Below are positions 3,501 through 55,370 of a stretch of 64,000 nt of DNA, in pieces. How positions within the stretch are numbered: position 1 is the first letter of the stretch; every line of letters starts with the position of its first letter. The notes under the pieces were generated by a model that saw nothing but the letters and a program-made list of their open reading frames with translations, was not told the origin of the DNA and made no database searches. The stretch is from a virus, in IMG/VR virus record IMGVR_UViG_3300045988_080614, one strand, 5' to 3'. The position numbers and the translations under genes are program-made.

Positions 3501-6500
3501 CAAGTTCATGAGTATTAGGGTCTAGCAAAGCATTATACAATTCTTCTGTTGGACAAGGAAGATAAGCTTCAAAATATTTAATAGAACCATCTTCATTATA
3601 AACAATTTGAGGCTGTTTACTTTCATCAAGACCAAAAGGAGAAGCTTGAATTAATGCTCCACCATTAATCTTCTGCTTAGTAACCCTATTTTTCAATATA
3701 CTATTAAGTAATGCCTGTATTCTTAAAGTCTGTGAAGGGTCTATAAGAGGAATATTAAAGTTACCATTCTCATCAAGAGTCAATGCTCTAATTAAGTCTG
3801 TTCCATATCTAGGATTACTTCTTACTTCTCTTATAAGTTCTTTCTCAACCTCATGAATATCATTAAACTTATCAGATACTTCCTTAAAAGCTTCTTGAAT
3901 ATTAGCAGTATTGATAGCATTAAAATAATTCATCCATTCTTCCTGTGTAAATTCCCTATCTTTATACTTTAATTTAAAGTTAGGGTCTCTATTAGGATTC
4001 ATGTCAGAACTAATCAATCTTCTAATCTGAGTACCTACAAGTTGAACCTTGTCAATACCATGTTCAGGAGTAGATGTCTGAATACCATAATCATTGTAAT
4101 CAAATTCATGTACTACATTTGGATTTTCTTTACCATTAAGCCTGGTTACATTTTCCAGGACAGTCATAGTAGAAGCATAATTTGTAGCATCATTAAGATT
4201 AATTGTACCTTGTAAGCCATCCTTTACAGCACTTTCAAACATAGCAGAATCTATATTATTCTTTACCATAAAGTCATTGAGAGCTTGCAATTTACTTGAA
4301 TGAAGTATTTGTCCAAACATTGCTCCTGTAAGGAGAAGGAACTCTGAATTCTTATGTTGAGTTGGAACTTTCATAATTCCACCCATTCCATCAGGTTGAT
4401 TCTTCTGAGTATAAAGATATGGTTTTCTTGTATTCCAAAGTACTAAGAAATCACTTGCAGTCCACTTATTATTCATAATATTATTGTAGGCTGTTTCTTC
4501 TGCATCAGACCACATACCTGCCATAATTTGAGTAGACCTAAATGATGGTAATGTATTATAAGCTTGTGCATCTGCTACATTGACTTTATTAAATATAGAC
4601 ATAATAGCAGCTTTATCATAAGCAGTAAAGGCATCATCTTTATCTTTAACTCTAGCTTCAAGTATTTCATTAATACTATCCATACTATTAGCAGGAAGAA
4701 TGTTATCCTTTAGATAAATAACTCTTCTAGCAGTTCTTCTACTTCCATCATTATTTACTAATACTGGTTTACCATTCCAAGTAGCAAGAGTATTAAGTCT
4801 TTCTGCTGGTGCATGGTCTTGCTTATTTCTCTTTTGGAAGTCCTCAAGATTTTTATAATAAGCTAAATCAGTAGTTGTAAGTTCAATGAACTGAGAAGTA
4901 AAATAAGTACTATTCCAGAACCACTCTCTCATTCTATCATTCATTCCTTCCTCAGAATAAACATTTACATGTTTAAATCTAGCATTCTTCTCTGTACCAA
5001 TTCTATCATAAAGACCAATATCCTTATAGTGTTGAATAGCCTCTTTAAATCTACTATCCATTATAGATTTAATAGTATTTTTAATTAAGTTATCAACTTC
5101 ATCCATAGATATCTGTTTAGCTTCATCTATAGCTTGAAGGAATGTCTTACCACTTTCATCTTTCTGATTTAATTCAGGGAAGAACTTAAATTCTGCACCT
5201 CCCATCTTTTTACCATTCATATCAAAGTTAGCAATAGGGTCTATATGATTATCTGTAGTAGCTCTTTCTTTAACAAGATTGATTCTATCAATCTCCTGAT
5301 ATACTAAATCTTTAAACTTATCAAGTAATTTCTCTTCATATCCTTTTTTATATCTCTTGAATTTAATAAACTCAGCAGATTGTGCATCAGATAACATAGG
5401 TACTTGATAATAACCATAAGTTTCACTTCCACTTCTATCTGCTGCACCAGTCATATACATATTATATAAGGCTAATGTAGCATCTAAATCTGTCCAAGCA
5501 TTATATTCTTTTCTATTATATTGAAGGAGTACTACATGCTTTAAATTACTTCTTACTTCTGCATTATTTTCAATTTCTTCTAATATACTATTTCTCCATT
5601 TACCATTCTTATTAAACCAATTACATACTCTATAATCATCAAGTACCTGTTTATAAGTATCTTCTCTCTGTAACTTCTTAATAAGAGTTGTTACATAAGA
5701 AGGATTAATATGAGCATACATAGTTTTATCACCTTGTCTTACACTAGATTCAATAGTATCTTCATCTACTTTATTGATTACCTCTGCAATATTATTAAAG
5801 GCAGTACCATGAATATTAAGTAAGTCTATATATTCACCATCTTTAACTTTCTCATTACCTTTATTTAAGTCATAATAAATAGTTCTTAAATTACTTAATA
5901 AGACATTAACTGCTGGCTTGAAAGCTTTATTATCTAAGTTAAACTTTAATGCATTTTCAAGTGTTTCTGAATCTACACTAGCACCTAACATATTCATAGC
6001 TTTCTTAATTCTTGCTATATTCTCATTAGTAAGATTTTCAGCAATAGTTTCTCTGTCTTCAAATATATCAAGTAATTCATTAACTAAATCAAGACCTACT
6101 TTAGCATTCTTTAATTGAATGTCTCCATTCTTATCATAAATACTATCAGTAGTAAGAACATTACCATATTCATAGTTATCTCTCCATTCATCAAAATAAT
6201 GTGAAGTACCCTCTGCACCATTAATAGACATTACTTTAGTACTTGTAGAGGTATCACTATTAGTACTTACCTTCTGAATAAAGTAATTAACATAATCCTT
6301 TCTATATGCTCTATAAAACTCAGTAAACAGTTGATTATCATTATTTAATTCATTAATAATCTGTTTTACCCAAACCTTCTTTTTACTAAGTTGTTCAAGC
6401 ATAGGAATCATATCTTCAGCACTAACCATATTTCTAAGAGCCTGTATTAATTCTGAATGTACATAACCTGCATTAAGATAGATATTATCTCCTAAATCAT

Positions 6501-16849: not shown

Positions 16850-18117
16850 TTACACATTAATATTTTTATTATATACTCTAGTTCCTGCTTCTATTTGTCT
16901 ATCCACACTAAATAGTTTAATAGGTCTTAAATACCCAATTATCCTTGTATATTGAGATATATTTTTACTATGACATTTAGGACATTCTACTATAGGATGC
17001 TTAGTAATATAACCACAATCTTCACATTTACTATTAGGTATATTAAAAGTAAAATATGAAGTACCTTCTTTAATAGCATAATCTATCAATTTTAGATATT
17101 GTTCTTTACTTAAATGCTCTTCTAAATTAATATGGCAAGCAGAACCTCCATCTGTATATTGATAAGTAGAATTTCCATGTAAATACATCTTATCTAATAC
17201 ACTTATATTAGTATCATTCTGTAAGAAGAAATAAGAATTATATAGATTTCTATTAGAAGGAACAAAATATCCATCTTTTTTATCCCAATTATAATTTTTA
17301 CTAGCAAGAGACTCTGCTGGAACTACTTCGCTATTAAATAAGAATGGTCTTTTCTTATCATTAATTGAATGTAAAGCATTTTGCTCCTTTATAGTAGAGA
17401 GAATAAGCTGAAGGAATTCAATATAATCTTTATTATTATTTACTTTAAGACCTAAGAACTCAGCAGCCTCATTAAGACCATTAATTCCTATAGTAGAATA
17501 AAGCTTCTTAATATGAATATAACCAGCATTACAACAAGTAAACATTCCTGCATCTTCCCAATCATATAATATTGTTTTATATGCAATATGATACTTGTAT
17601 ACTCTTTCAAGAATATTAGTAATATATATATTTAAACTATTTCTATTAACCTCTACCTTAATATCTGGTATTCCTTCATTTTTCCAATCTCCAACCCAGT
17701 CTTGAACAATTCTATTAATATTAAGAGTAATTACATTACAAGAGCCTGTCATAATACCTGTCAATCCTGATGTAGGACTAAATGTATTTTTATCTACTTG
17801 ATTTCTTAACCTGCAACATGAAGCTAAACTATCAGCACTATCACTAATATAAGTAAAGAAACTATGTTTTTCAGCATACATTTCTGCACATAAATCTTTA
17901 TATTCTTTATCAATAATATTTTTACCATTATGTACCATTGCAAATGTTTCCACAGGAAAAGCTACTATTGCTTTTGTTCTAAGTTTATTAAACCATTTCA
18001 TAAACAATCTTTGCAAAGTATCTATTGCTTTCCATTCTGGTTTAGTACCATCAGGATAATAGAATTCTCCAAACATTGCTTCAAAATAAGTTTTATCAAA
18101 ATATGAAATATTTGTAA
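16850..18117 (-). CDS. nrdD: anaerobic ribonucleoside-triphosphate reductase NrdD, exon 2
   Basis: The frame extends upstream of the track ORF to ..(F)TNISYFDKTYFEAMFGEF. C-terminal Zn ribbon CEDC...CPKC and glycyl-radical motif TRIIGYLRP. Exon 1 plus exon 2 total 2166 nt (721 aa). Confidence 0.85.
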
Positions 18118-18338
18118 CATTTTGTTCACATAGAGTCGTTAATTCTATGCAGTTCTCTTATGAACTTCTTATAATTTCTTATAAGCTCAGACTATATCAT
18201 TACTTATATAAGTAATCCCCGCTTCCACTCACTTGAGTGTACTCCATAAAGGATAGTCGTTGAACCTTACCAAAATAAATTGGTCTTGGCTGCTGATTAC
18301 CATATCAAATGACTTAGGGTTCCAGCAATTCAAGGATT

Positions 18339-19043
18339 TTATAGTCCACCTACTTTGCCATGTATTTTATGGTGACATATAGAACATACAGTTATTAAAT
18401 TATTAGGATTGTTTAATTCTTTATCTTTAGTAGCAATTTCATACAATTTATCTATGTCTTCTATTGGAGATAATGGATAATTTTGTACTATAATTCTATC
18501 TAATATTACTTTAAAAGGGATTAAATGATGTACTTGTAGATTATCTTTACTTCCACAAATTATACATTTATTTTTATCTCTATTAAGTATTTCCTTTTTT
18601 AAAGAATTATTACTACAATATTCTCGAAGTCTTTGAGATAATGTAGTTATACCACCCTTCCAATTAGGATGATTATTACCTACCATTAATCCTATTTTAC
18701 TTTCAGAATTGTTTCTAATTTTTATTCCTAAATTCTTTAAAACTCTATCAATAACACAAGGGTCACAATTATATCTAAGACCAAGTTCTTTCTTTGAAAG
18801 TCCTTCTTTTAAATATAATCTTTCCATAACTTCTTTATTAGTAAAATCTTTTGGAATTTCTTTAGACTTAAAATTCCATTGTGACTCTACTAAAGTTCTC
18901 CTTGTAATAGAATGTTTCTTTAATCTTAATAAGATTGTTCTATGTGTAGTCTTAAACTGTTCTGCAATCTCAGTTAAAGACTTTCCTTGTAAATACAAGT
19001 CAATAATAATACTATCATTTAAATCTTTTCTATGTGCTGCCAT
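18339..19043 (-). CDS. intron-encoded HNH homing endonuclease
   Basis: CIICGSKDNLQVHHLIPF...NLITVCSICHHKIHG. N-terminal HTH-like GKSLTEIAEQF. Confidence 0.85.
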   Translation of the reverse strand: MAAHRKDLNDSIIIDLYLQGKSLTEIAEQFKTTHRTILLRLKKHSITRRTLVESQWNFKSKEIPKDFTNKEVMERLYLKEGLSKKELGLRYNCDPCVIDRVLKNLGIKIRNNSESKIGLMVGNNHPNWKGGITTLSQRLREYCSNNSLKKEILNRDKNKCIICGSKDNLQVHHLIPFKVILDRIIVQNYPLSPIEDIDKLYEIATKDKELNNPNNLITVCSICHHKIHGKVGGL

Positions 19044-19063
19044 AAATATAATTATTTAGGCTG

Positions 19064-19095
19064 CAAAGATACAAAATTTATTTGAAAGTACCAAA
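19064..19095 (-). promoter_or_regulatory. Bacteroidota-type promoter inside the intron driving the HNH gene
   Basis: Minus strand reads TTTG (19095-19092)-N20-TATCTTTG (19071-19064), 20 nt before the ATG at 19043. Confidence 0.5.
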
Positions 19096-19102
19096 CTTCT
19101 TA

Positions 19103-20000
19103 ATGGACTTTGATATGACCTATTACCAGCAGGTTGATTAATACCCCATACAAATTGACTAAAGGCTTTATAGATTCTATCTCTTACTGTTCTTTGAATT
19201 TTAATATAAGGACTAGTAGCATATAAATCTAGCTTATCATACCATTTATCTCCAAATTCCATAATAGTATAATAATTTAAAGCTATAAAATAAGAACCTA
19301 CTGCTACTGCACCCTTACATTGAGAGGACAATGTAAATATAAGATTAGTTAATTGACCACTAAATGACTCTAAATCATTAGGTGGAGTAGGAGTTACTCC
19401 ATCAATATTACCTACACCTTCTAACATTAAAGGATAGAGACTTACTGCCATACAATAGAATTTAGGTACAGGAGTACTTGCTTCATCATTAGTATAAATA
19501 ATATGATTATTTAAATCTTTTTCATATTGCTTTGCTAATTCAGGAAATAATTCATTAAGTTTATCCTTCATTCTTTGTCTTTGAATAAGCCTATTTTCAT
19601 CTTTATATACTTCTGCTTCAAGAGATGCTACATTTTTAATAGCAGTATTAGCATTAGGGTCTGTATTACTAGAAGTTGCTGCATTTTCTTGGTTATTCTT
19701 ATATTCTTCCATATAATGTAACCTCTTAATTCTAGTTCTAGCTTCCTTATGTTTTTCTCTATAAAGAATATAAGATTTAGCAATATTAGGATAATTACCC
19801 ATAAGATAATATTCTACTGTATCTTGAATACTTTCAGTATTAATATTATCAGTAGTAAAGGCATTAGCAAATTCTTTAAACTCATTCTCATTAAATTTGT
19901 CTTCTTCCTTACAGGACTCAAAAGCCTTCCTAATAGCATTTACTATTTTATTTGAATCCCATTTAACTTTACTACCATCTCTTTTTATTACATATGTCAT
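19103..20000 (-). CDS. nrdD: NrdD, exon 1 (ATP-cone plus N-terminal part)
   Basis: ATP-cone-like VIKRDGSKVKWDSNKIVNAIRKAF. The track ORF reads through into the intron for 15 codons (LRSLVLSNKFCIFAA) before a stop. Confidence 0.85.
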
Positions 20001-22140: not shown

Positions 22141-22444
22141 TAATAATACCAGTTAAAATATTAAGAAACTCCTTAAATTCTTCCTTATTATTAAGATTAA
22201 TTACCTTAACATTAGGTTCTTTTGGCATAGGACCTCTTTTACCATGTGTTCTATATATACTCTTCTGTACAGGAACAACTACTTTAGCTTCAATAGAATC
22301 TCTTTTAATCAAATCGTCAATAGTAGCTTCATCTACAGAACTATTACATTCAAATTGTACACCATTACTACAAGTAATAATCTGAGTAATCTTATCTCCT
22401 AACTTAATCTCCTGATTAGTACCTTTAAAATAATACTTTTTCAT
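22124..22444 (-). CDS. hypothetical protein
   Basis: 106-aa ORF with an ATGA overlap to the UDG gene. Confidence 0.5.
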   Translation of the reverse strand: MKKYYFKGTNQEIKLGDKITQIITCSNGVQFECNSSVDEATIDDLIKRDSIEAKVVVPVQKSIYRTHGKRGPMPKEPNVKVINLNNKEEFKEFLNILTGIISGKCQ

Positions 22445-23094
22445 CTTTTAAATTTTATTTTATTGTTTAAATGATTATTTATTTCATCCCACAAATTATA
22501 TCTAAGTTTCTTATGATTCCTAGCATAATATGAAGGATGTTTTTCTTTAATTACATAATTATATTGAGAGATATAAGGTTCAAAAGTTTTAGCTTCTTCA
22601 CCAAATAATACATATACACAAGCAGTCATATATCTAGACATATTATATATTAGTTTAGATATAAAAGGTCTCCATAGTCCTAAATGAGAACTAGGGAGAC
22701 CTACCTTACATGTTAATGCACAATTCAACATTAATACTCCTTGCTTCTCCCAATCTTCAAAACTGGGGTCAAAGATACTACTATTTTGTGGAATTTCATA
22801 ATTGATAACTGATTCTTTTATAACTTGTAAGGATGGTGATAAATCTTTATCAAGTGTTTTTATATTGTTACCAAAAGCAATTCCAGTAGCCTTACCTAAT
22901 TGTGGATAAGGACTTAAACCTAATATAACTACCTTTAATTCAGATAATTTACAAGCTTTAAAACAATTAAAGATGTCATTATAATTAGGACATAAATTAA
23001 CAGTATTGCTAGAATTAAGTGTATTAATTGTCTCATATAATATTTTCTTATCTATTACTTTTAACCAATCTCCAAAATATTCCTCTAAAGACAT
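22441..23094 (-). CDS. uracil-DNA glycosylase-like protein
   Basis: VVILGLSPYPQ (compare GQDPYH) and a late HPSYYA (compare HPSPLS). Confidence 0.6.
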   Translation of the reverse strand: MSLEEYFGDWLKVIDKKILYETINTLNSSNTVNLCPNYNDIFNCFKACKLSELKVVILGLSPYPQLGKATGIAFGNNIKTLDKDLSPSLQVIKESVINYEIPQNSSIFDPSFEDWEKQGVLMLNCALTCKVGLPSSHLGLWRPFISKLIYNMSRYMTACVYVLFGEEAKTFEPYISQYNYVIKEKHPSYYARNHKKLRYNLWDEINNHLNNKIKFKR

Positions 23095-23753
23095 AATTTA
23101 TCTATATTATCTACAAGAAGCTGTTGTATTTCCTCATTAACATTAATATTGGTAGGAGCCTTAACATGTCTTATAAACTTATCAATATCATTATTAATGA
23201 TAACTGTCATAGTAGTAAAACCACTTATTATAGAAAAATATCTAGAAACAGTACTACAATATTCAATAAGATACTTTTGAATACCTTTACATACAACATT
23301 ATCACTATTGAAAACTTTAGGACTTACTCTAAGTATAAGCTCTGTGGTAGCTGATGTTCTTCTAGGAGGTCTAATAGTAGATAATACTAATGGTTCTAAA
23401 TTACTATTAAGTATTAAACCTCTCATTCCATAATAAAGATTACCATCTTTATCTCGAATTTTATTTAATTCTCCTGCTTCTCTAATTAAACTTAACTCTT
23501 TTAAAAGAGGACCAAAAGTTTTTCTTTCATTTATACTAGTAGAAGAAGAAGTAAATAGTGGAATTATTCCTCTCAAAGATAAAGAATTATAAATAGGAAT
23601 CTCTGTAACCTCACCATTAAATATATGATTTGTCATATATATAGAGAATTGGTTATTCTCTGTTCCTAATAAAGGTATATTTGTTGAACGGAGAGAGGCT
23701 GACGTAACACCAAGAAAGATATTTATATTATTTTTAATATTTTCACTTATCAT
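23085..23753 (-). CDS. hypothetical protein, last gene of the E1/JAB neighbourhood
   Basis: 222-aa ORF with a TAATG overlap to the E1-like gene. Confidence 0.55.
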   Translation of the reverse strand: MISENIKNNINIFLGVTSASLRSTNIPLLGTENNQFSIYMTNHIFNGEVTEIPIYNSLSLRGIIPLFTSSSTSINERKTFGPLLKELSLIREAGELNKIRDKDGNLYYGMRGLILNSNLEPLVLSTIRPPRRTSATTELILRVSPKVFNSDNVVCKGIQKYLIEYCSTVSRYFSIISGFTTMTVIINNDIDKFIRHVKAPTNINVNEEIQQLLVDNIDKLCL

Positions 23754-24703
23754 TAATCTTCTTCTTTTAAGTACATCATATTACAATCATATTCTATAAA
23801 GAAAGGTAATTGCTTTATCATAGGAACAATTTCATTAGCACAGAAATTAACTACATTATTTACAATAAAAGAAGCTATCATACAAGCCATAAAAGTAGTT
23901 TGTTTTAAACTACATACAGTTTCATCTGCTTCTTCATCAGAAAATAAGAATTCTTTTTCATATCTATCCTGATTATATGTATCTGTACCTACAATAGTGA
24001 GTATTTGTAAAGTATCAAATGACAATCTGGCATCAATATATAGACATTTAGATTTATCTTTCTGTAATTCTACATGTTTTCTCCAGTTATTAAAGAATAC
24101 CTTTCTAGCTTCCATATTATCAAAACCACAAATCATAATATCAGAAGTAAAACTATTCCTAGTATATAATTCTCGCATAGCAAATATATCAGTATATTTA
24201 CTATAATAGCTAACAGTTTCTGCTATGGCATCCACTTTATATTTATCTATATCCTTGATACCAAACATTTGTCCAGCAAGATTAACTTCCTCAACTTTAT
24301 CATTATCAAAGATATAGATACTCTTAGGATGTATTCTAGCTAATTGAAATATAGCATTTGAAGAAATACCTCCTGCACCTCCTACAATAATAACTTTCTC
24401 TTTAATTTTATTAAACCATTCTGCTCCTGAAAATCTAGCAGTTTCATCATGATAATCTTCACTTATAGGAGGAATTTCCTGATGTTGATTTTTAATAACT
24501 TCATTCAAAAAAGCTTCATCTTCTTCTGATAATATAGATTCTGATTCTTCTTCTACTACTTCTTCAGGTCCTAATATTGATGTTGTTTCTCTGTCGGTTA
24601 TCTCTAAAGGAGCAATAGCAACTTCTGGAACATTAACTGTAGTATTTACTATTTGTTCCATATTAACCTCCAAAGGTGGAGTTATAGTTGATTCTTCATT
24701 CAT
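23753..24703 (-). CDS. ThiF/MoeB/E1-like adenylyltransferase
   Basis: VIIVGGAGGISSNAIFQLARI...IYIFDNDKVEEVNLAGQMF...YKVDAI...ICGFDNMEARK. Acidic N-terminal extension of about 90 aa. Confidence 0.8.
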   Translation of the reverse strand: MNEESTITPPLEVNMEQIVNTTVNVPEVAIAPLEITDRETTSILGPEEVVEEESESILSEEDEAFLNEVIKNQHQEIPPISEDYHDETARFSGAEWFNKIKEKVIIVGGAGGISSNAIFQLARIHPKSIYIFDNDKVEEVNLAGQMFGIKDIDKYKVDAIAETVSYYSKYTDIFAMRELYTRNSFTSDIMICGFDNMEARKVFFNNWRKHVELQKDKSKCLYIDARLSFDTLQILTIVGTDTYNQDRYEKEFLFSDEEADETVCSLKQTTFMACMIASFIVNNVVNFCANEIVPMIKQLPFFIEYDCNMMYLKEED

Positions 24704-24707
24704 AATT

Positions 24708-25550
24708 TTAAATAATAAAACGTTCTACTTCATCCTCTATAACTTCAATAAAGGAATTAGTTTTAAATGTATGTAATTTCTGTAATACACCATAAGCACA
24801 TATAGCCATTTGTGAATCTTCAAGATAACCTTCTTCTGCTAAATTATCATCAAAGGCTTCTGTTACAAGAAATTCTACAAAATAACCAATAAAAGCTCTA
24901 TAATTTGCTAAACCTTTTTGTCCCTCTCCAAATCTTTTAGAAAATACTGTAGGCATTTTTTGAACCCATTCATTGAGGTCTTTTGGAGTAAAAATAGGAC
25001 TACCTATAAGTAATTGTTTAACAATATTATTTAAGTCTGTTTCATTAAATTTATACTTATTATAATCAATAGATTCATCTGTATCTACTCCTGTTTGAAC
25101 AGCAGTATTAGTCTTAGAGAAAGGTATATTTGCTTCCTTATATAAAGGTGTTGCCTTTAAAGTAGGTTCAACAATAAGATTAGTACGAGGCTCTCTACTA
25201 ATATTTGTATTTTTAATCTTATCCTTACTAATTTCTTCAATTCTACTAAATAGGTCTGTATAACCAATATTTACAGTAGGCTTTTCAATATTCAAGAAGA
25301 AATATTCTATTTCATAAGATTCTATAGCATCATATTCATCATTACCTATATTAATAGTTTCTTCACCAAAGAACTCATATTCAAGTACTTCTGTTACATG
25401 AGGAATATGTTTAACTTTTCTTGTAATTGCCGCAGTATATTGACCGGCATTATTAACAATCAAAGATAAGAAATTATTCATATCAGAACCTTCTTCTTGA
25501 AGAGTTCCAAGGTCAGTTCCACTGAAAAACGTTGACATCTGGTCATGTGA
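24708..25550 (-). CDS. JAB/MPN (JAMM) metallopeptidase, exon 2
   Basis: The frame extends upstream of the track ATG to SHDQMSTFFSGTD. Joined to exon 1 this gives HSHDQMSTFFSGTD (HxHx7Sx2D). Confidence 0.8.
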   Translation of the reverse strand, partial: SHDQMSTFFSGTDLGTLQEEGSDMNNFLSLIVNNAGQYTAAITRKVKHIPHVTEVLEYEFFGEETINIGNDEYDAIESYEIEYFFLNIEKPTVNIGYTDLFSRIEEISKDKIKNTNISREPRTNLIVEPTLKATPLYKEANIPFSKTNTAVQTGVDTDESIDYNKYKFNETDLNNIVKQLLIGSPIFTPKDLNEWVQKMPTVFSKRFGEGQKGLANYRAFIGYFVEFLVTEAFDDNLAEEGYLEDSQMAICAYGVLQKLHTFKTNSFIEVIEDEVERFII

Positions 25551-25615
25551 CTTAATGTTATCCTTACAGCTCTTTATCTGTAAGTTCTTGTTTTTATAAT
25601 AAAAATAGTTAATTA

Positions 25616-25647
25616 TTTGCTTATTTAAAATCTAATTTGTACCTTTG
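25616..25647 (+). promoter_or_regulatory. Bacteroidota-type promoter for the LAGLIDADG gene (antisense to the intron)
   Basis: TTTG (25616-25619)-N20-TACCTTTG (25640-25647), 11 nt before the ATG at 25659. Confidence 0.5.
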
Positions 25648-25658
25648 CACATAATAAA

Positions 25659-26549
25659 ATGATTTATATTATGGGAAAATTAAAATTAGAAAATAAAAAA
25701 GATTTAATTTTATCTCTTTATAAAGAAGGTAAAACTCCAATAGAAATATCTAAAATATTAGGTACTTATTTACAGCCTATAACTAATTTATTAAAAGCTT
25801 ATATACCTAATATTAAATTTACTCCTAATAAGGGGAATGTTCATTATTTTCATACTATAGATAGTTATGCAAAAGCTTATATTGTAGGTTTTATAGCTGC
25901 TGATGGAGCTTTAGTAAAACCTAAACATGGTAATGATGCTTTAACTATAACAATTAAATATGAAGATAAGTCTGTTTTAGATTTTATAAAATCTGAAATA
26001 GGTAATGAACATAAAATTCAAGAAATAATTCGACCTTCTAGTTTTGATAAAACTAAAATAATTCATCATGCTAGATACTGTATAACAGATAAAAATATAG
26101 CAGATGATTTACATAAATTAGGTATAGATAATAATAAAAGTTTAACTATGGGAAATATTATAGAAAATATTCCATATAAATATAGAGATGCTTTTATTAT
26201 AGGATATTTTGATGGAGATGGTTCTGTAACTATTAGAAACAGATTATATTCTAATGATAGAAATTTTTTATGTAAGGATTTCTCTCTATATGTACAAATT
26301 AGAGGGACTATTAAATTTCTATCTGGAATATGTAATCATTTAAAAATAACTACTTCTCATATACATCAAATTGATTCTATACCACAATTAAGTTTTGCAA
26401 ATAAAAAAGATACTTATAGATTCTTTCAATGCTATAAAAATCTTCCATTTTATTATAAAAGAAAGTATGATAAATTCTTACAAAGAATAAATCATCCTTC
26501 TTATGACAAATATAAACAAGTTCAGACTATATCATCATCTATAGAATAA
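25659..26549 (+). CDS. double-motif LAGLIDADG homing endonuclease
   Basis: YIVGFIAADGAL and FIIGYFDGDGSV. Encoded on the strand opposite the host gene and intron. Confidence 0.9.
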   Translation: MIYIMGKLKLENKKDLILSLYKEGKTPIEISKILGTYLQPITNLLKAYIPNIKFTPNKGNVHYFHTIDSYAKAYIVGFIAADGALVKPKHGNDALTITIKYEDKSVLDFIKSEIGNEHKIQEIIRPSSFDKTKIIHHARYCITDKNIADDLHKLGIDNNKSLTMGNIIENIPYKYRDAFIIGYFDGDGSVTIRNRLYSNDRNFLCKDFSLYVQIRGTIKFLSGICNHLKITTSHIHQIDSIPQLSFANKKDTYRFFQCYKNLPFYYKRKYDKFLQRINHPSYDKYKQVQTISSSIE

Positions 26550-26716
26550 TCTATAGAGTTGGGCACTCGTGTCACTATTATATTCTGCGTGATTAGCAGT
26601 TTCAAGTGTTAGTCGTTGAACCTTCAAAGAGGTTTTAACCTCTAAGCTTGGCTGCTGATTGTGGCTTGTCAACCAGTTTCCAGCAATTCACCCAATTTTA
26701 TATGCACTCACAGTTA

Positions 26717-27010
26717 ATGCATTAAGCCTTGCTGACATTCTAATAAGTCATGTTCTATCATATAATTACAGATTTCTGCACTCTTATCAAACTCAGTATA
26801 AGTAGCAGAACCATAATCCATAAGACAGAAATCTTTAGCAGTTAATACTAAAGAATTATCTTCAAATCTACCAGTATAATCATAGAATAATACTCCACTA
26901 TATTCATTATTAGGAAATCTAGCACACAAGAATCTAATCTTTTCTTCTAGTTCTGGAGTAATAATTAACTTATATGTATTATCTTGTTTCTTTAATATAT
27001 TTTTGTCCAT
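26717..27010 (-). CDS. JAB/MPN metallopeptidase, exon 1
   Basis: Contains the upstream JAMM Glu context NNEYSGVLFY. Ends ...ECQQGLMH at the splice site (98 codons). Confidence 0.8.
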
Positions 27011-28094
27011 AATTATAATTTATAAATTCTAATATATTCCGTATTGCCACATTAATATATTTTACATTAAGAATATATACAGGTTCAATAGTAGTATCAG
27101 TATCTATAATCCTCATTTTAACAGGTATATTCTTAAATGTAAATAAGACATCAGTACTAGGACTACAAGAACTGTGTCTATTACTATCTTCTTCAGTAAA
27201 ACATCCTTTATAAAAGACTGCTTTTATAAGAATTTTAGCTCTTACTAACTCATTTAAATCTGTAGAAAGTTCTTTATTATTAAATCTTTTATTATAAATT
27301 GCTATAAACTCATTGCTTATTAATCTAATTAAAGAAGCATCATTATCAGCAAAACTATAAGTATTATTTACATATTTAAAAGTAAATACTTTTCTATTTA
27401 TAAGATTACGTATGGCTTCTTTTATAATAAATGAAATTTCTGAAGAGGTTCTACAACTAGTATCTGAAAAAATTATTTCTTTATTACTATTATTTCTACC
27501 AATATATTCCATTCTGTAATAAGGAACTCCTGCTATAGATTCTACTGTAACATATCTAGCTAATTCCACACAGAATAATCTCCATATATTTTCATTATTT
27601 TCATCTCTAAGAATAGTACAAGTTGTTCCAATAGGACCTCCTCCTAAACAAGGTCTCTGAAAATAAGCTTTACCATGACTTAAAGAACCTGAAGGTAAAT
27701 GGGAATGTGTATAATTACTTTCATATAAAACTTTAGTGAAAGTAGTAACAATCATTTCAAATCTTTTAGCTTGTTTTCCTGCATAATCAAGTGGTACTTT
27801 AACATATAAGTCATGAATATCTACACTATTATCTTTTTCATTAGTAATAGTTACATTAGGAAAATGAACTAATATAATATATGAAAATTCACATAATGGA
27901 AGTAAAGGAGAATTTAAAGTATCTTCCAAGTTTTCACCTTCTGCTATTAAAGTTTCTACAGCATCTTTAAAATCTTTATCTACTTGAAAGTCTACTTTAG
28001 TTTCACCAAAGAAACTTTTAAATATTTCATATACTTTAAGAGCTTCTTCTGTAGGAGTATAATATTTATTTCTTATCTGTTCTTTTATATCCAT
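26979..28094 (-). CDS. hypothetical protein (candidate E2/UBC-like partner; unverified)
   Basis: The track start at 28118 is TTG; the ATG at 28094 gives MDIKEQIRNKYY... Beta-rich core followed by THSHLPSGSLSHGKAYFQRPCLGGGP. Overlaps the JAB start by 32 nt. Confidence 0.6.
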   Translation of the reverse strand: MDIKEQIRNKYYTPTEEALKVYEIFKSFFGETKVDFQVDKDFKDAVETLIAEGENLEDTLNSPLLPLCEFSYIILVHFPNVTITNEKDNSVDIHDLYVKVPLDYAGKQAKRFEMIVTTFTKVLYESNYTHSHLPSGSLSHGKAYFQRPCLGGGPIGTTCTILRDENNENIWRLFCVELARYVTVESIAGVPYYRMEYIGRNNSNKEIIFSDTSCRTSSEISFIIKEAIRNLINRKVFTFKYVNNTYSFADNDASLIRLISNEFIAIYNKRFNNKELSTDLNELVRAKILIKAVFYKGCFTEEDSNRHSSCSPSTDVLFTFKNIPVKMRIIDTDTTIEPVYILNVKYINVAIRNILEFINYNYGQKYIKETR

Positions 28095-28158
28095 AAGTAA
28101 TAAAAAAGAAGGGAGCAAATATATTACTATACTTACTCCCTATTAGATTTTTTATAAA

Positions 28159-28872
28159 TTACATGTTTTTAAACATATCATTAAGTTCATTTGATGAATA
28201 TGGAGAATCTGATTCCTCTTCCTTTGAAGCATTTGAAGTATCTGAAGTGACATTACCAATAATAGCAATATTATCAATATCAATATCATCAGAATAATCC
28301 ATACCTGCATTCTCCATTTCTTTCAAAAGACTTTCAATAACTTTCCTAAGTTCTGCTTTAGTAACATAGCTACTAAGGTCAGTAGTCTTCATAGCAGGCT
28401 TATTAGGAACTTCCTTCTTTGCAGGAGCTGCTTTAGCTGTAGAAGCTGAAGCATCTGCTATTGCAGGAGCTGCTTCTTTGTTAAGAATCTTCTGCAAATC
28501 TTCTGTCTTACAGTTAGTATAATTCTTACCATAAGTCTTCTTAACTACTTCTGTAAGGTTCTTAACCTTAATCTCCTCAATGATAGCCTTTCTATCAAGC
28601 TTTGCTCCACTTCTAATCTTCTTTGAAGCATTAGTAATCATAAATACCAAGTTATTAGTAGTAGTTCCCTTATAAGGAACATCATGTGGAAGGATAGCAG
28701 CATCATTCTTCAATTCAATCTTAGTAAGACCCTCAAAGAATGTACAATCAGTATAATCAATACCTGCCTTAGTAAGGTCTGCTTTGAGTTCTGCCAATGT
28801 TGTTGCTGCACTTTCAATAACTTGTGTCTTGTGAGTCTTTGTAGGAATCACTGTAATCTTTCTTTTTTCCAT
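28159..28872 (-). CDS. hypothetical protein with a possible N-terminal beta-grasp-like module and an Ala-rich linker
   Basis: KITVIPTKTHKTQVIESAATTLAELKADLTKAGIDYTDCTFFEG...NLVFMITNASKKIRSG, then a SAP-like KTEDLQKILNK segment, an AAPAIADASASTAKAAPAKK linker and an acidic tail. Confidence 0.55.
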   Translation of the reverse strand: MEKRKITVIPTKTHKTQVIESAATTLAELKADLTKAGIDYTDCTFFEGLTKIELKNDAAILPHDVPYKGTTTNNLVFMITNASKKIRSGAKLDRKAIIEEIKVKNLTEVVKKTYGKNYTNCKTEDLQKILNKEAAPAIADASASTAKAAPAKKEVPNKPAMKTTDLSSYVTKAELRKVIESLLKEMENAGMDYSDDIDIDNIAIIGNVTSDTSNASKEEESDSPYSSNELNDMFKNM

Positions 28873-28918: not shown

Positions 28919-29941
28919 TCAAAAAGGTAAATCATCATCCATATTTGGTGCTTTAGTCTTATTAAAAGCATTATTAAATTCTTCAATAAGTCTTTTTTTA
29001 CCAAAATAATGATATATATCTGAATAATCTTTTGCTTTATCAATTAAAGGACAATGAATTATCTCAAAACCTGTTTTTAATCTAAGATTATAGGCATCTA
29101 TTTCACCTGCTGAATCTCCATCAAATGCTATATAAATATGGTTATATCTTTTTTGTAAACAATTAATTGCAGAATCACTTAACTCTGTATTTTCTGATTG
29201 AACATATATACAGGGTATATTAACATTAGACCATAGACAGATACTATCTTTCAATGATGAACATATAAGCAATGTATCTCCTGTCTCTGGAATTTTAGAC
29301 CACAAACCAATAACACTCTTGTCATTGGAAGATGTCCATTTGTAACCATTTTTATTATAGGGTTGATAAATTTTCTTGGTGATATTCCCTTCTTTTCTTT
29401 CAATATAACAATATGCTAGTTTATCACAAGCAAATGTATATCTTTTATTATCTTTATATATAATTTTATGACTAATAGGATATACTTCAACATACTTTAA
29501 TAGATTTATATTACATCCATAAGATTCCCAATACTCAACATCATAATTTCTCCATTCTCTAGTTTTAACCTCTAGTCTGATTTGACTACTACTTATTGTA
29601 GCTGAGTTATGTTTAATTTGAGATTTAGAGATATTAATCTGCTTAGTATTAATATTCATATCTTTACTTATCTTATCTACTAGTTCTATAAAACTAATAT
29701 TGTAGATTTGCATAAGTAAATCAAATAAAGACCCTTGTTCTCCTGTTGCAAAGTCTTTATAATGTATATGTATACCATCACTTGAATATAATCCAAATGA
29801 AGGTTTAGAATCATTCCTTAAAGGGCTATTCATTCTAAAAGGAACTTGTGTAATACCAAAGTAGAAATTAAGTATTTGACCCTCATCTACTTTGTTTAAT
29901 ATATCTTTTAAAGTTATTGAAGTATATCCATTGCTAATCAT
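28919..29941 (-). CDS. DnaG/T7 gp4-like DNA primase (Toprim)
   Basis: NSPLRNDSKPSFGLY primase N-terminal motif. Toprim LICSSLKD...IAFDGDSAGE. Acidic-aromatic C-terminus NMDDDLPF. Confidence 0.75.
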   Translation of the reverse strand: MISNGYTSITLKDILNKVDEGQILNFYFGITQVPFRMNSPLRNDSKPSFGLYSSDGIHIHYKDFATGEQGSLFDLLMQIYNISFIELVDKISKDMNINTKQINISKSQIKHNSATISSSQIRLEVKTREWRNYDVEYWESYGCNINLLKYVEVYPISHKIIYKDNKRYTFACDKLAYCYIERKEGNITKKIYQPYNKNGYKWTSSNDKSVIGLWSKIPETGDTLLICSSLKDSICLWSNVNIPCIYVQSENTELSDSAINCLQKRYNHIYIAFDGDSAGEIDAYNLRLKTGFEIIHCPLIDKAKDYSDIYHYFGKKRLIEEFNNAFNKTKAPNMDDDLPF

Positions 29942-47922: not shown

Positions 47923-48102
47923 TTAATATCTAAATAATTTCTTTTTAGCTTTATTCTTATGTGAATAGTAAGTGCTCTTTGCCTTACTTTCACAAAAGAC
48001 TAATTCAATTTCTTTTGTAATTTTAGTTACATGATTTTTACGAACAATAGTTCTTTCACTCTTGTAGTAGCAAGTAGCTACTTTTTCATTAATTGTTCTC
48101 AT
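47923..48102 (-). CDS. small basic protein (59 aa)
   Basis: Hand-translated MRTINEKVATCYYKSERTIVRKNHVTK... Confidence 0.35.
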   Translation of the reverse strand: MRTINEKVATCYYKSERTIVRKNHVTKITKEIELVFCESKAKSTYYSHKNKAKKKLFRY

Positions 48103-48109
48103 AATTCTA

Positions 48110-48289
48110 TTACTTTTTTAATGTTACTTTAAACCAAATGCACTTACCTTTCAGTAAATGTTTATGCAAAGCAAAAGCTCTACAATCTTTTAAACCTTCC
48201 TCTATAGTTTTAGAGGCATTGATAGTCCTAGCTAAATAATAGTTAGGTCTAAACATTCGATAGAATGTTATTAAATACGTCTTTTTCAT
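48110..48289 (-). CDS. small basic protein (59 aa)
   Basis: Hand-translated MKKTYLITFYRMFRPNYYLARTINASK... Confidence 0.35.
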   Translation of the reverse strand: MKKTYLITFYRMFRPNYYLARTINASKTIEEGLKDCRAFALHKHLLKGKCIWFKVTLKK

Positions 48290-48420
48290 TTTTCTGTTAA
48301 TATTTTAATAATCCAAATACCTATAAATATCCAACCTACTATAATATATTGTTCATCAGTTAGCATATTTAATACTGCTAAAATACCAATAGGTATTATA
48401 ATATAAAGTAATTTTTTCAT
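48286..48420 (-). CDS. small membrane protein (44 aa)
   Basis: Hand-translated MKKLLYIIIPIGILAVLNMLTDEQYIIVGWIFIGIWIIKILTEK. ATGA overlap. Confidence 0.3.
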   Translation of the reverse strand: MKKLLYIIIPIGILAVLNMLTDEQYIIVGWIFIGIWIIKILTEK

Positions 48421-48430
48421 CTCTTAAATA

Positions 48431-48523
48431 TTAAAATATCATATAACCTAAAATTATAGATACTATAATAGTACCTATTAATTCTGTATAGAAATAAAAT
48501 GTATAAAAATCTTTTTTATTCAT
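48431..48523 (-). CDS. very small membrane peptide (30 aa), doubtful
   Basis: Hand-translated MNKKDFYTFYFYTELIGTIIVSIILGYMIF. Confidence 0.2.
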   Translation of the reverse strand: MNKKDFYTFYFYTELIGTIIVSIILGYMIF

Positions 48524-48767
48524 AATTGTTATGTTTAAATGTTTTTAACTATGTATTTTATTGATATTTCATACTAAATAAAACAACTAGAGTTGTAATG
48601 AGAAAGTATAAAATGTTATCATCTTATTTGTTGTTAACAAAAAGACTAGAGAGTAGATTATAGTGATTTTATAGGGGATTTGTTTTAACCCCCACACACC
48701 TTAATCCTTTAAACCTAAAACCTTAATAATCAATAGATTACAAAGTTCTATTAAAGTATTTATTTAA

Positions 48768-48834
48768 GTCCTATAAGAAAGAAAAAGACTATAAAACTGT
48801 AAAACAAAAGAATATTATTTCTTCCTTACAGGAC
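48768..48834. repeat. long imperfect hairpin, copy 2 of the repeated element
   Basis: Arms gtcctataagaaagaaa... / ...tttcttccttacaggac. Same end sequences as copy 1. Confidence 0.5.
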
Positions 48835-48895
48835 CTAAAAACTTTAAAACACACATGATATTCTCTCTAATGATATTTGATATTAACACTAGAGA

Positions 48896-48920
48896 TAATA
48901 AAAAAGGGAGCAAGGCTCCC
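48896..48920 (-). terminator. intrinsic terminator
   Basis: gggagc-aag-gctccc hairpin followed by a T-run on the minus strand, 7 nt after the stop at 48927. Confidence 0.55.
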
Positions 48921-48926
48921 TTCCCT

Positions 48927-49259
48927 TTAGAAGCTGACAATAGCATTACTATTGTTACCCTGCTCATGCATGATAAGCATGTGATTGCCATCCTGCATTA
49001 TAACTTCTGATACTACTGGAGTATCATAAGCCTCATTATTAAGCATCTTGTTGCTTAACTTCTCTGCTACCATTCCACGGATTTCTCCGCAAGCAAAGAA
49101 GCACATTGTGGCTCCTGATGCATGAGTTTTCTCCTTTGATAGAACTACATTGATTGATGCACCATTGCAAGCTGACTTCATTTCTTCGAGGCTAACAGTC
49201 TCAATGAAATTGTTGTTTGAACTCTGTGAATTACTCTTGAAATTTGAAAAGTTAATCAT
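48927..49259 (-). CDS. hypothetical protein, first gene of the minus-strand block
   Basis: 110-aa ORF. Visibly higher GC than its surroundings. Confidence 0.5.
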   Translation of the reverse strand: MINFSNFKSNSQSSNNNFIETVSLEEMKSACNGASINVVLSKEKTHASGATMCFFACGEIRGMVAEKLSNKMLNNEAYDTPVVSEVIMQDGNHMLIMHEQGNNSNAIVSF

Positions 49260-53870: not shown

Positions 53871-53942
53871 GGTGGGTTAGACAAGTGGTTAAGTCATAGG
53901 GTTTTCATCCCTACATCAGGAGTTCGAGTCTCCTACCCATTA
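53871..53942 (+). tRNA. tRNA-Glu(TTC)
   Basis: Hand-folded cloverleaf. Anticodon stem taggg/cccta with loop ttTTCat. T arm aggag-ttcgagt-ctcct. The acceptor stem has two G-U pairs. Confidence 0.7.
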
Positions 53943-53947
53943 CTAAT

Positions 53948-54018
53948 TGGAGTATGGTGTAAGGGTAACACGAGAGATTTTGGTCCTCTAATTTTCAGTT
54001 CGAATCTGGGTATTCCAA
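53948..54018 (+). tRNA. tRNA-Gln(TTG)
   Basis: Acceptor tggagta/tattcca, D stem gtgt/acac, loop ttTTGgt, T loop ttcgaat. One A-C mismatch at the base of the anticodon stem. Confidence 0.7.
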
Positions 54019-54025
54019 CTATGAT

Positions 54026-54099
54026 GGCTCTGTAGCTCAACTGAATAGAGCAACAGCCTTCTAAGCTGTGGGTCATAGGTTTGAATCCTATCAGAGTCA
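54026..54099 (+). tRNA. tRNA-Arg(TCT)
   Basis: Acceptor ggctctg/cagagtc, D gctc/gagc, anticodon stem acagc/gctgt with loop ctTCTaa, T arm atagg-tttgaat-cctat. Confidence 0.85.
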
Positions 54100-54148
54100 C
54101 AAGAGGATTTGAGAAATCCAATGAGAATTGTAACTTTTAATATTCTAA

Positions 54149-54178
54149 AACTACTAAATCTGTGAAGACAAGGTAGTT
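54149..54178 (+). other. conserved-loop hairpin, copy 1
   Basis: Stem aactac/gtagtt. 18-nt loop taaatctgtgaagacaag with an inner tct-GTGA-aga mini-helix. Confidence 0.5.
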
Positions 54179-54230
54179 ATATTTAAAAATTTTTATGTGA
54201 GTAAAAAATGTGGCAAACATACAGCGATTA

Positions 54231-54262
54231 TAAGCAGTAAATCTGTGAAGACTAGCTGCTTA
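54231..54262 (+). other. conserved-loop hairpin, copy 2
   Basis: Stem taagcag/ctgctta. 18-nt loop taaatctgtgaagactag. Ends 4 nt before tRNA-Ala. Confidence 0.5.
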
Positions 54263-54266
54263 ATTT

Positions 54267-54339
54267 GGGGATAGTGGTGTAATTGGTAACATATTTCCTT
54301 TGCAAGGAAATGTTTAGAGTTCGAGTCTCTCTGTCTCCA
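54267..54339 (+). tRNA. tRNA-Ala(TGC)
   Basis: G3-U70 wobble present in the acceptor ggggata/tgtctcc. Anticodon stem tttcc/ggaaa with loop ttTGCaa. Confidence 0.8.
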
Positions 54340-54443
54340 CATGAAAAGTATTGTAGATGCATATATGAATACAACGTAACTCCTAGGTTTTAGTTTATCT
54401 ATGTAAGTTTAGTCCTAGTGGATGTCGTAGAATCCTTAGTAAC

Positions 54444-54468
54444 AAGGGAGGCTAGAGTTATCTCCCTT
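54444..54468 (+). other. leader hairpin before tRNA-Met
   Basis: 7-bp stem aagggag/ctccctt. Ends 4 nt before the tRNA. Confidence 0.4.
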
Positions 54469-54472
54469 ACAT

Positions 54473-54544
54473 CGTGGGTTGTAGCAGTGATAGCTTACTT
54501 GGCTCATAACCAAGTGGTCGTTGGTTTGAATCCAACACCCACAA
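54473..54544 (+). tRNA. tRNA-Met(CAT); function (initiator, elongator or Ile2) undetermined
   Basis: Anticodon stem cttgg/ccaag with loop ctCATaa. T arm gttgg-tttgaat-ccaac. C1-A72 mismatch. Short atypical D arm. Confidence 0.7.
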
Positions 54545-54586
54545 CTATTAACTTTTAGATTTAATATATTAAACTAAGGTTTTCAA

Positions 54587-54612
54587 CTCTACTTTCCCTT
54601 AATAAAGTAGAG
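54587..54612 (+). other. leader hairpin before tRNA-Asn
   Basis: 9-bp stem ctctacttt/aaagtagag, 9 nt before the tRNA. Confidence 0.4.
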
Positions 54613-54621
54613 TGCTATTAT

Positions 54622-54693
54622 TGGGATATAGCTCAAAGGCAGAGCATTTGACTGTTAATCAAAAGGTTGAGGTATCGTAATCCTCTATCCCAG
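54622..54693 (+). tRNA. tRNA-Asn(GTT)
   Basis: Perfect acceptor tgggata/tatccca, D gctc/gagc, loop ctGTTaa. Non-canonical T arm gaggt-atcgtaa-tcctc. Confidence 0.65.
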
Positions 54694-54701
54694 CTATAAA
54701 T

Positions 54702-54775
54702 AGGAGTATAGTTCAGTCGGTTAGAGCATTTGGCTTATATCCAAATTGTCGGGGGTTCAAGTCCCTCTGCTCCTA
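54702..54775 (+). tRNA. tRNA-Ile(TAT)
   Basis: Acceptor aggagta/tgctcct, D gttc/gagc, anticodon stem tttgg/ccaaa with loop ctTATat, T arm ggggg-ttcaagt-ccctc. Confidence 0.8.
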
Positions 54776-54782
54776 CTATTTA

Positions 54783-54855
54783 CTCTCTTTAGCTCAGTTG
54801 GTAGAGTACGAAACTTTTAATTTTGGGGTCATGGGTTCAAGTCCCATAGGAGAGA
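54783..54855 (+). tRNA. tRNA-Lys(TTT)
   Basis: Acceptor ctctctt/aggagag, D gctc/gagt, loop ctTTTaa, T arm atggg-ttcaagt-cccat. Confidence 0.8.
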
Positions 54856-54857
54856 CT

Positions 54858-55109
54858 ATGAATTATTTATTAAAACTTATACAGAATAATACAGGAGTAA
54901 GTTCTAAGAATTTCTTTCTAGTATCTGTAACTATTGTAGGTATATTATTACTTATAGTACCTATAATAGTATTATTAGTAGAAGTATTTAATGAACATAC
55001 AATACATACAGATTTAAGTGGTATGGCACAATATATTACAGCAGTAGCGGCTATATTTACATCTGTAGGTATTACTAAAGCATGGTCAGAAAAATATGAA
55101 AAGAAATAA
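54858..55109 (+). CDS. small two-helix membrane protein embedded in the tRNA array (holin-like topology; function unproven)
   Basis: ATG at 54858, 2 nt after tRNA-Lys: MNYLLKLIQ...FFLVSVTIVGILLLIVPIIVLLV...YITAVAAIFTSVGITKAW. The track's TTG start at 54798 lies inside the tRNA. Confidence 0.45.
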   Translation: MNYLLKLIQNNTGVSSKNFFLVSVTIVGILLLIVPIIVLLVEVFNEHTIHTDLSGMAQYITAVAAIFTSVGITKAWSEKYEKK

Positions 55110-55181
55110 GCTTCTCTATATCAATGATAGATTGTCACCCTTGTAAGGTGAAGGTTATAGGTTTGAGTCCTATGAGAAGCT
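55110..55181 (+). tRNA. tRNA-Thr(TGT)
   Basis: Perfect acceptor gcttctc/gagaagc, anticodon stem tcacc/ggtga with loop ctTGTaa, T arm atagg-tttgagt-cctat. Irregular D arm. Confidence 0.65.
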
Positions 55182-55208
55182 CAATATAAACTTTAAATTT
55201 GTATTATT

Positions 55209-55319
55209 ATGAAAGTTATTACATTTGTAAAAAACATGATTAAAGCTTATTTTAAAGCTTATGCAGATGCTATGGAACCATTCTATAAACATGGTATTTC
55301 TCCTATGTGTCCTGCATAA
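55209..55319 (+). CDS. very small ORF (36 aa), doubtful
   Basis: Hand-translated MKVITFVKNMIKAYFKAYADAMEPFYKHGISPMCPA. Followed by two hairpins. Confidence 0.25.
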   Translation: MKVITFVKNMIKAYFKAYADAMEPFYKHGISPMCPA

Positions 55320-55370
55320 TTAATTGATGTTTAAAGTGTTATGAGCAATATGGCTCATACACTATGTTTG

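Follow-up and report, generated by a model that had tools for sequence, protein, structure and literature searches.

A five-gene cassette in the replication module of crAss-like phages encodes E1- and JAMM-type enzymes and a candidate ubiquitin-like modifier

We describe here a gene cassette from a 64,000-nucleotide (nt) stretch of viral DNA (IMG/VR record IMGVR_UViG_3300045988_080614; this whole stretch is referred to as the window), which is a segment of a crAss-like phage genome with a G+C content of 29% and has no near-identical genome in the GenBank phage set. The cassette consists of five minus-strand genes that abut or overlap at their start and stop codons, and we propose that it forms a phage-encoded module which processes and activates a ubiquitin-like (Ubl) modifier and in which a non-canonical carrier, p371, probably replaces the E2 enzyme. 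For this full chain we see the case as evenly balanced, while the triad of Ubl, JAMM peptidase and E1 enzyme, taken alone, strikes us as likely. At the level of sequence, what is demonstrated comprises the identities of the E1 and JAMM enzymes, a group I intron together with its exact junction, an invariant [S/A]-G end of the candidate modifier domain and a strict linkage of the genes. The cassette and the elements within it are laid out as follows (window coordinates).

28159-28872, minus strand: p237, with a putative Ubl-like domain (codons 1-89, 28606-28872) and a C-terminal extension (28159-28605).
28606-28611, minus strand: codons for Ser88-Gly89 of p237, the predicted JAMM cleavage site and E1-activated C-terminus.
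26979-28094, minus strand: p371 (also x2), with an invariant His...Cys pair; candidate thioester carrier or ligase.
27648-27701, minus strand: invariant His...Cys stretch of p371 (His132, 27699-27701; Cys149, 27648-27650).
26717-27010, minus strand: JAMM exon 1, residues 1-98, the last residue being His98.
25551-26716, minus strand: group I intron, which interrupts the JAMM HxH motif.
25659-26549, plus strand: LAGLIDADG endonuclease open reading frame (ORF) within the intron, on the strand opposite to its host gene.
24708-25550, minus strand: JAMM exon 2, residues 99-378, with S-H100, S108 and D111 followed by a C-terminal region of about 230 residues.
23753-24703, minus strand: E1/ThiF-type adenylating enzyme, with a variable acidic N-terminus (1-85) and an adenylation domain.
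23085-23753, minus strand: p222 (also x3), the fast-evolving fifth gene, whose start overlaps the E1 stop.

The cassette is flanked by a DnaG-type primase (28919-29941) on one side and a uracil-DNA glycosylase (22441-23094) on the other. Four of its genes had been placed on the minus strand, with exact coordinates and abutting or overlapping ends, by a first-pass annotation made from the letters alone; the fifth (23085-23753) falls within the range which that annotation gave for the set, yet went undiscussed there.

The same five genes occur in identical order in Bacteroides phage crAss001, in DAC15, cr85_1, cr106_1, cr128_1 and bajarodcaudo virus 1, and in Flavobacterium phage FpV4. Their counterparts in crAss001 are gp79 (p237), gp78 (p371), gp77 (JAMM), gp76 (E1) and gp75 (p222), and GenBank labels the E1 as 'thiamine biosynthesis protein' or 'E1 enzyme family protein' and the JAMM enzyme as 'metalloprotease domain containing protein', the other three being hypothetical. 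When searched against 50,697 phage records, p237, JAMM and E1 each match the same 74 (29 from Bacteroides, 29 from Flavobacterium, 12 uncultured crAss and 4 others), and the E1 is encoded on about 395 IMG/VR contigs. Wherever enough flanking sequence was available, the order Ubl-like domain, p371, JAMM, E1 was kept, namely in 83/83 crAss-type and 78/78 diverged environmental loci (161/161, a figure that combines two fetches which share some contigs); in two loci (L133, L169) it was confirmed by eye. Thus the genes do co-vary across related phages, a check that the first-pass annotation had proposed. The cassette has a fixed position inside the replication module and was not seen in variable accessory islands. 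In the literature searched, which does not cover all journals, we found no account of such a module in crAss-like or FpV4-like phages, in agreement with the first-pass annotation, to which the set was not familiar as a described module.

The candidate modifier is the first domain of p237 (237 residues), which comprises 89 residues and closes on KKIRSG. Its S-G end is invariant in the 83 crAss-type loci and, in the 78 more diverged environmental loci, an equivalent domain of about 75 residues ends K-x-K-[S/A]-G, again with an invariant Gly. What follows this Gly varies between clades, and the p237 extension is not conserved across them. Moreover, six loci (four distinct versions) carry the domain as a stand-alone ORF that runs just 1-5 residues past the Gly, the endings being SG-K, SG-E, AG-H, AG-Y and SG-NEKKH, each followed directly by the stop codon. 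Such behaviour is the signature of a Ubl precursor that would be trimmed by a JAMM enzyme. With so few residues past the Gly in the stand-alone forms, p237 as a leader and core of a ribosomally synthesized and post-translationally modified peptide was rejected.

Four loci (L007, L038, L074, L079, one of which is cr106_1) have an HNH endonuclease gene inserted right after the SG codons. It leaves an upstream ORF that stops two codons past SG, as SG-KF or SG-IC, and a downstream part that begins at a start codon of its own. The endonuclease of one locus has decayed, yet the split persists there. We conclude from these split genes that the two halves of p237 need not be joined. The HNH genes (L007, 7281-7796; L038, ~4470-4900; L074, ~4495-4930; L079, ~4815-4970) are related and sit at one point in different subclades, which makes this point a homing site, placed where the codons are most conserved. 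That they are introns is unlikely, since an endonuclease ORF that begins 10 nt past the Gly codon is followed by a cistron with an ATG of its own.

As for the fold, the first-pass annotation had read the first 88 or so residues as a beta-grasp modifier; comparison strongly backs a modifier with its end at ...SG, while the beta-grasp fold itself gained no such support. What speaks for it is solely a crude propensity profile, with the order strand-strand-helix-...-strand, and a likeness by eye between the domain end (LP-x-GDF-x-LFL-x-P-x-K-x-K-S-G) and that of MoaD/ThiS (GDE-V-x-I-x-PP-V-x-GG). The extension (28159-28605) appears by eye to hold a helix-extended-helix (HeH)-type segment (..RKAIIEEIK...KTEDLQKIL) and a low-complexity Ala/Pro/Lys linker and has, in crAss-type relatives, a conserved acidic end (S-x-x-E-[IL]-[DN]-D-M-F); overall it gives the impression of a protein that binds DNA or the replisome.

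For the peptidase, joining 27010..26717 to 25550..24708 yields a 378-residue protein with a complete JAMM motif (E36...H98-S-H100-x7-S108-x2-D111), just as had been noted in the first place. For H98, H100, S108 and D111, conservation is 97% or more in a set of 143 sequences, and the spliced protein aligns without gaps to uninterrupted homologs, one relative encoding an uninterrupted 378-residue product. On the spliced protein the PADLOC JAB profile (a CBASS JAB model, from cyclic-oligonucleotide-based antiphage signalling systems) scores E 3.3e-5; Pfam Prok-JAB stays below its cut-off of 25 for the window protein (16.5 bits) as well as for relatives (20.4-21.6 bits).

The intron, likewise called by the first-pass annotation, has its junction set by intron-less alleles and is backed by an Rfam group I match. 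Two loci that are 98-99% identical (L008, L010) are without the 1166-nt insert, such that 26716/7 joins directly to 25550; further loci lack the insert as well, whereas L014 and L018 carry it. Rfam RF00028 detects a group I ribozyme core at 26507-26726 on the minus strand (69.9 bits against a gathering score of 50, E 2e-17). Read from the sequence, exon ATGCAT pairs with intron GTGCAT to form P1, with a U.G at the splice site, and intron TGTGA pairs with TCACA of exon 2 to form P10; the guide hence reads TGTGA-GTGCAT and the terminal intron base is G. The ORF on the opposite strand matches Pfam LAGLIDADG_3 (E 3.8e-8) and a PHROG endonuclease (E 1.7e-37); it lies antisense in the 3' part of the intron, the ribozyme core filling the 5' ~220 nt. 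Judged by these alignments and matches, it is confirmed that a mobile group I intron splits the JAMM gene within its HxH motif. Group I introns were reported only when about 1 kb was scanned, and default-filter Rfam scans of the whole window and of a 4-kb piece missed both of those in the window (the second is described below); further introns could be overlooked by such wide scans. In a distant relative (L154, 2988-6487) the JAMM and E1 genes each give two separated HMM matches, which suggests additional insertions or introns in both.

The gene at 23753-24703 encodes an E1/ThiF-type enzyme, as its family match and motifs indicate: Pfam ThiF covers residues 92-306 well above cut-off (55.4 bits against 28.1, E 6e-15), and the motifs quoted in the first-pass annotation are present. 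Across 146 distinct relatives G109, G111, G112 and S115 of the Rossmann-type nucleotide loop (GxGxxG) are invariant, as are D133, D135, K156, D195-N196, R200 and C264; by analogy with MoeB and ThiF, we take D133, D135, K156, D195-N196 and R200 to serve ATP and Mg. The 85 N-terminal residues are acidic and variable and are absent from the FpV4 enzyme (228 residues). Among NCBIfam models ThiF ones match best (2e-17), yet the ThiF/MoeB equivalog scores fall far under their cut-offs (63 against 159), as does PRTRC_ThiF (5e-8, score 32.6 against 144.75), so the enzyme belongs to the superfamily and to none of those named families. The GenBank label 'thiamine biosynthesis protein' is unlikely to be right.

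A profile built from eight phage sequences matches MccB, UBA5, PaaA and TcdA at the top of the solved structures, and UBA6, Uba1, NAE1/UBA3, ThiF, MoeB and Cap2 are also among its PDB matches. One might thus envisage an adenylase of the MccB/PaaA/TcdA kind, which modifies a peptide or nucleoside and acts on another substrate altogether, with the link to p237 being merely syntenic. We consider this highly improbable: the top matches span only the shared Rossmann part (positions 92-160), the conserved peptide-clamp N-domain is missing from the enzyme (its N-terminus being variable, and the FpV4 enzyme so short), and MccB, PaaA and TcdA systems include neither a JAMM peptidase nor a small Gly-ended domain.

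In the PADLOC defence library the E1 domain best matches CBASS Cap2 models (4e-9) and the JAMM enzyme, as mentioned, CBASS JAB, matches that would also suit a role in counter-defence, where the JAMM enzyme strips Bil- or CBASS-type conjugates in the host, the E1 disturbs host Ubl activation and p237 is simply an accessory protein of replication whose N-terminal domain is small. That Bil and CBASS use such enzymes against phages is established in the literature (e.g. PMC10097602, PMC10557695), and the HeH-type segment and acidic tail of the p237 extension would agree with an accessory protein. This scenario, however, leaves unexplained why the domain has an invariant [S/A]-G end and stand-alone forms with 1-5 extra residues, and why p237 and p371 are linked to E1 and JAMM in every locus of very distant phages; besides, the cassette is fixed in the replication module rather than placed in variable accessory islands. 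We regard this scenario as distinctly improbable; the purpose of counter-defence, which the first-pass annotation had also named as an example, is speculation.

Turning to p371, residues invariant among 136 distinct sequences are N85, Y128, S131-H132, C149-x-G151 and E185-S186..G189.P191. The first-pass annotation had been reminded here of the HPN...C flap of E2 folds; in favour of this reading we found the invariant His...Cys pair and nothing else, and the 'SHGKAY' quoted there has a His that shows no conservation. Instead it is H132, within Y-T-H-S-H-L-P and 17 residues ahead of Cys149, that is conserved, and among p371 relatives the His...Cys spacing amounts to 11-36 residues and lacks Pro-Asn, as opposed to about 8 residues in canonical E2s. 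Since some clades have Gln or Phe in place of His130, we discarded an HxH metal site, which leaves the His...Cys pair. The invariant S-H...C-x-G pattern points to a catalytic Cys, and it is from this Cys and from gene context that we infer an E2-like role. Nor is p371 an orphan, as it had been called, since a profile finds 2349 cluster representatives at 50% identity. In 185,579 species genomes this profile gave five matches, all in metagenome-assembled genomes, on two contigs of 94-111 kb (the size of crAss genomes), one of 29 kb and two short fragments; going by these matches, the family is in effect phage-only. Among the matches listed, a homolog search with a diverse p371 profile brought back the same clade again.

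The fifth gene product, p222 (222 residues), was detected after E1 in 83/83 crAss-type loci, and 74 of 75 diverged loci have a same-strand ORF of 173-461 residues in its position. We obtained no family or PDB match for p222, whether with the window protein, with a profile or, in Pfam, with 13 members. The fifth cassette gene of FpV4 ends EDLPF (L003, 8929-8946), and the primase next to the cassette ends DDDLPF (28919-28936, minus strand), which resembles the acidic tip of bacterial single-stranded DNA-binding protein; the two ends may be a shared docking peptide, to judge from their letters.

From these parts we envisage the following route. The JAMM enzyme would cut the p237 precursor after Ser88-Gly89 and so free a modifier of about 89 residues with a C-terminal Gly. 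As expected from its family membership, the E1 would adenylate this Gly with ATP and probably form a thioester on Cys264. The modifier would then pass to p371, whose Cys149 and nearby His132 may act as a second carrier or ligase in the stead of an E2, this being the weakest step, and the fast-evolving p222 may set target choice or be the target itself. The position of the cassette among replication genes suggests that replisome or host proteins are targets early in infection.

Several results weigh against this model. At the level of the modifier, an AlphaFold prediction of p237 (58 near-identical sequences) reached a predicted local distance difference test (pLDDT) score of 41 and was unusable; the alignment behind it was shallow, being drawn from the 120 closest matches listed. 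In hhalign, the Ubl-like domain compared with ubiquitin, NEDD8 and SUMO gave P values of about 0.05-0.1 over ~30 columns, and there was no significant match to ThiS, MoaD, Urm1 or Ufm1 (the reference sequences for modifiers, and for the three E2s used below, were typed in). Profiles of the domain (8 and 28 sequences) searched against PDB and a Pfam scan of 28 such domains returned noise, and the tail is S-G or A-G, never G-G.

With the E1, the corresponding points concern its C-terminal half and one residue of its nucleotide site. A profile of that half drew only noise from PDB sequences, so that Cys264 (ETVCSLKQTT, 23912-23914), although invariant in all 146 relatives, cannot be aligned to the crossover-loop Cys of ThiF or UBA5; the first-pass annotation had singled out this Cys as lying roughly where a crossover-loop Cys might be, and the half of the protein that holds it aligned to none of the solved E1s. 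In addition, the motif reads N-L-[SA]-G-Q with Gly144 (24272-24274, minus strand) invariant in the relatives, and not the Arg of NLxRQ, an Arg that the printed profile alignments place at the equivalent position in MccB and UBA5. We identified no residue in the E1 that compensates for it; with this Arg absent, ATP handling by the enzyme may differ.

For p371 the result is much the same. An AlphaFold (AF2) model from 47 sequences has a pLDDT of 67 and a poor core, where it drops below 50 over residues 126-152, the stretch in which the conserved His and Cys lie. Searched with this model, Foldseek found nothing in PDB at E<=0.001, the best matches being unrelated, and in BFVD only the p371 family itself; no UBC fold, as the first-pass annotation had suggested, emerged from a model with so weak a core. 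Pfam gave no real match for the window protein, for 111 diverse members or for long p371 variants, hhalign against three canonical E2s gave nothing, a p371 profile against PDB sequences returned noise and PADLOC had no match. The invariant polar residues N85, Y128, E185 and S186 exceed what a plain E2 needs and would fit a different enzyme as well. Finally, PADLOC applied to the cassette reported no BilA, BilB or BilC match and BilD only at E 0.007.

A sulfur-carrier pathway of the ThiS/MoaD/CysO/QbsE/TtuB type has to be weighed here, too. In it the JAMM enzyme would expose the Gly, the E1 would adenylate it for conversion to a thiocarboxylate and p371 would use the sulfur on a nucleotide, tRNA or small molecule. 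JAMM enzymes trim sulfur carriers in QbsE/QbsD and CysO/Mec+, with QbsE losing two residues, a precedent that joins the ThiF models as best NCBIfam matches of the E1, the MoaD/ThiS-like domain end of p237, the enzyme-like wealth of invariant polar residues in p371 and the setting of the cassette among nucleotide-metabolism genes in a phage with many tRNAs. Set against this are the tail without G-G, the ThiF/MoeB equivalog scores far under cut-off and the failure of p371 to match any known sulfur-insertion family; furthermore, the E1 has no fused rhodanese, and among the annotations of the replication module in crAss001 there is neither a desulfurase nor a PP-loop thiolase, ThiG or MoaE. All in all, we think a sulfur-carrier role unlikely. 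None of the three alternatives accounts for the combination of an invariant Gly end and a linkage of four genes in every locus as well as a Ubl-processing and -activating module does.

How does the cassette compare to known systems? Bacterial Ubl-JAB-E1-E2 operons of the '6d' type, which we take to be the system now studied as Bil, resemble the cassette in their make-up: besides a JAMM peptidase and an E1 they include a small modifier and a partner that bears a Cys. Unlike these, the cassette is encoded by phages within a replication module, its partner p371 is not a detectable UBC protein and its modifier, which ends S-G, mostly comes with a C-terminal extension fused to it. The '6d' operons, as described by Iyer, Burroughs and Aravind in 2006 (PMC1779556), also have a rapidly diverging protein as their fifth member. 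With type II CBASS (Cap2/Cap3) the cassette shares an E1 adenylation domain and a JAMM enzyme, which give its best defence-library matches, and Cap2 is among the PDB profile matches; these matches, however, span only ~80 residues of the Rossmann fold, there is no cGAS/DncV-like nucleotidyltransferase (CD-NTase), a separate small modifier replaces the CD-NTase C-terminus, and the E1 is not fused to an E2, whereas Cap2 is an E2-E1 fusion.

Among phages, the lambda/T1 tail assembly protein I has a Ubl-like domain up to a conserved Gly, a linker and a second domain, and the JAB protein K is predicted to cut after this Gly (PMC1779556). The parallel to the cassette lies in a phage Ubl-like domain that ends in Gly and in the predicted JAB cut; in contrast, the I/K pair lacks an E1 and a Cys partner and acts in tail assembly rather than within a replication block, and we found no sequence similarity between the two. 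JAMM-trimmed sulfur carriers (QbsE/QbsD/QbsC, CysO/Mec+, TtuB/TtuC/TtuD) resemble the cassette in that a JAMM enzyme exposes a C-terminal Gly and a ThiF/MoeB-type E1 adenylates it, and differ in the G-G end, the rhodanese or sulfur-insertion partner that the cassette lacks and in family scores, which for the cassette are far below cut-offs. In UBA5-UFM1 the E1 is minimal, lacking a separate Cys domain, and the modifier precursor ends x-Gly plus two residues, albeit in a eukaryotic system with UFC1 as E2; the E1 profile ranks UBA5 high among its matches (2.7e-10, Rossmann region only), and by analogy Cys264 would be the equivalent of its catalytic Cys. The PRTRC cassette of plasmids and integrative and conjugative elements (ParB-related, ThiF-related) also holds JAB-, E2- and Ubl-like proteins, and the phage E1 matches PRTRC_ThiF weakly, as given above. 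Apart from that match, no PRTRC model in NCBIfam matched any cassette protein, and when 72,556 plasmids were searched by tblastn with the E1, no match came up. On these comparisons the E1 is a superfamily member and the peptidase carries a full JAMM motif, and the cassette could be assigned to none of the named systems. A faint PF27945 flag on one homolog was discarded as GTT3_N noise.

Elsewhere in the window, the anaerobic ribonucleotide reductase gene (16850-20000, minus strand) seems to be split into parts of 314 residues (19056-20000) and 408 residues (16850-18076), while in a close relative (L094) it is a single gene for 721 residues; between the parts lie a second Rfam group I intron match (18168-18395, minus strand, 92.4 bits) and an ORF of 234 residues (18339-19043). 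There is also a cluster of ten tRNA genes (53871-55565, plus strand), and the GC skew changes sign at ~48000-49000, its cumulative minimum lying near 48 kb, where genes switch from the minus to the plus strand.

Extending our model, we tentatively put forward, with some doubt on our part, that Steigviridae of the Crassvirales, FpV4-like Flavobacterium phages and many environmental relatives may run their own complete Ubl-conjugation cascade during infection, with p371 (His132/Cys149) as a carrier or ligase from a new family, one that has no sequence relationship to UBC enzymes, and that the proteins thereby tagged would come from host or phage, replication factors and defence proteins of the host being examples. 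Since the cassette is carried by cultured phages (crAss001, DAC15/17, Bacteroides cellulosilyticus phages, FpV4), this proposal is directly testable, and its likely partner, p371, represents a large uncharacterised enzyme family of 2349 sequence clusters. In bacteria, links between Ubl conjugation and antiphage defence have recently come to light (CBASS Cap2/Cap3 and Bil). If our proposal is true, bacterial viruses, too, would use Ubl-conjugation chemistry, and would do so in one of the most abundant phage groups of the human gut.

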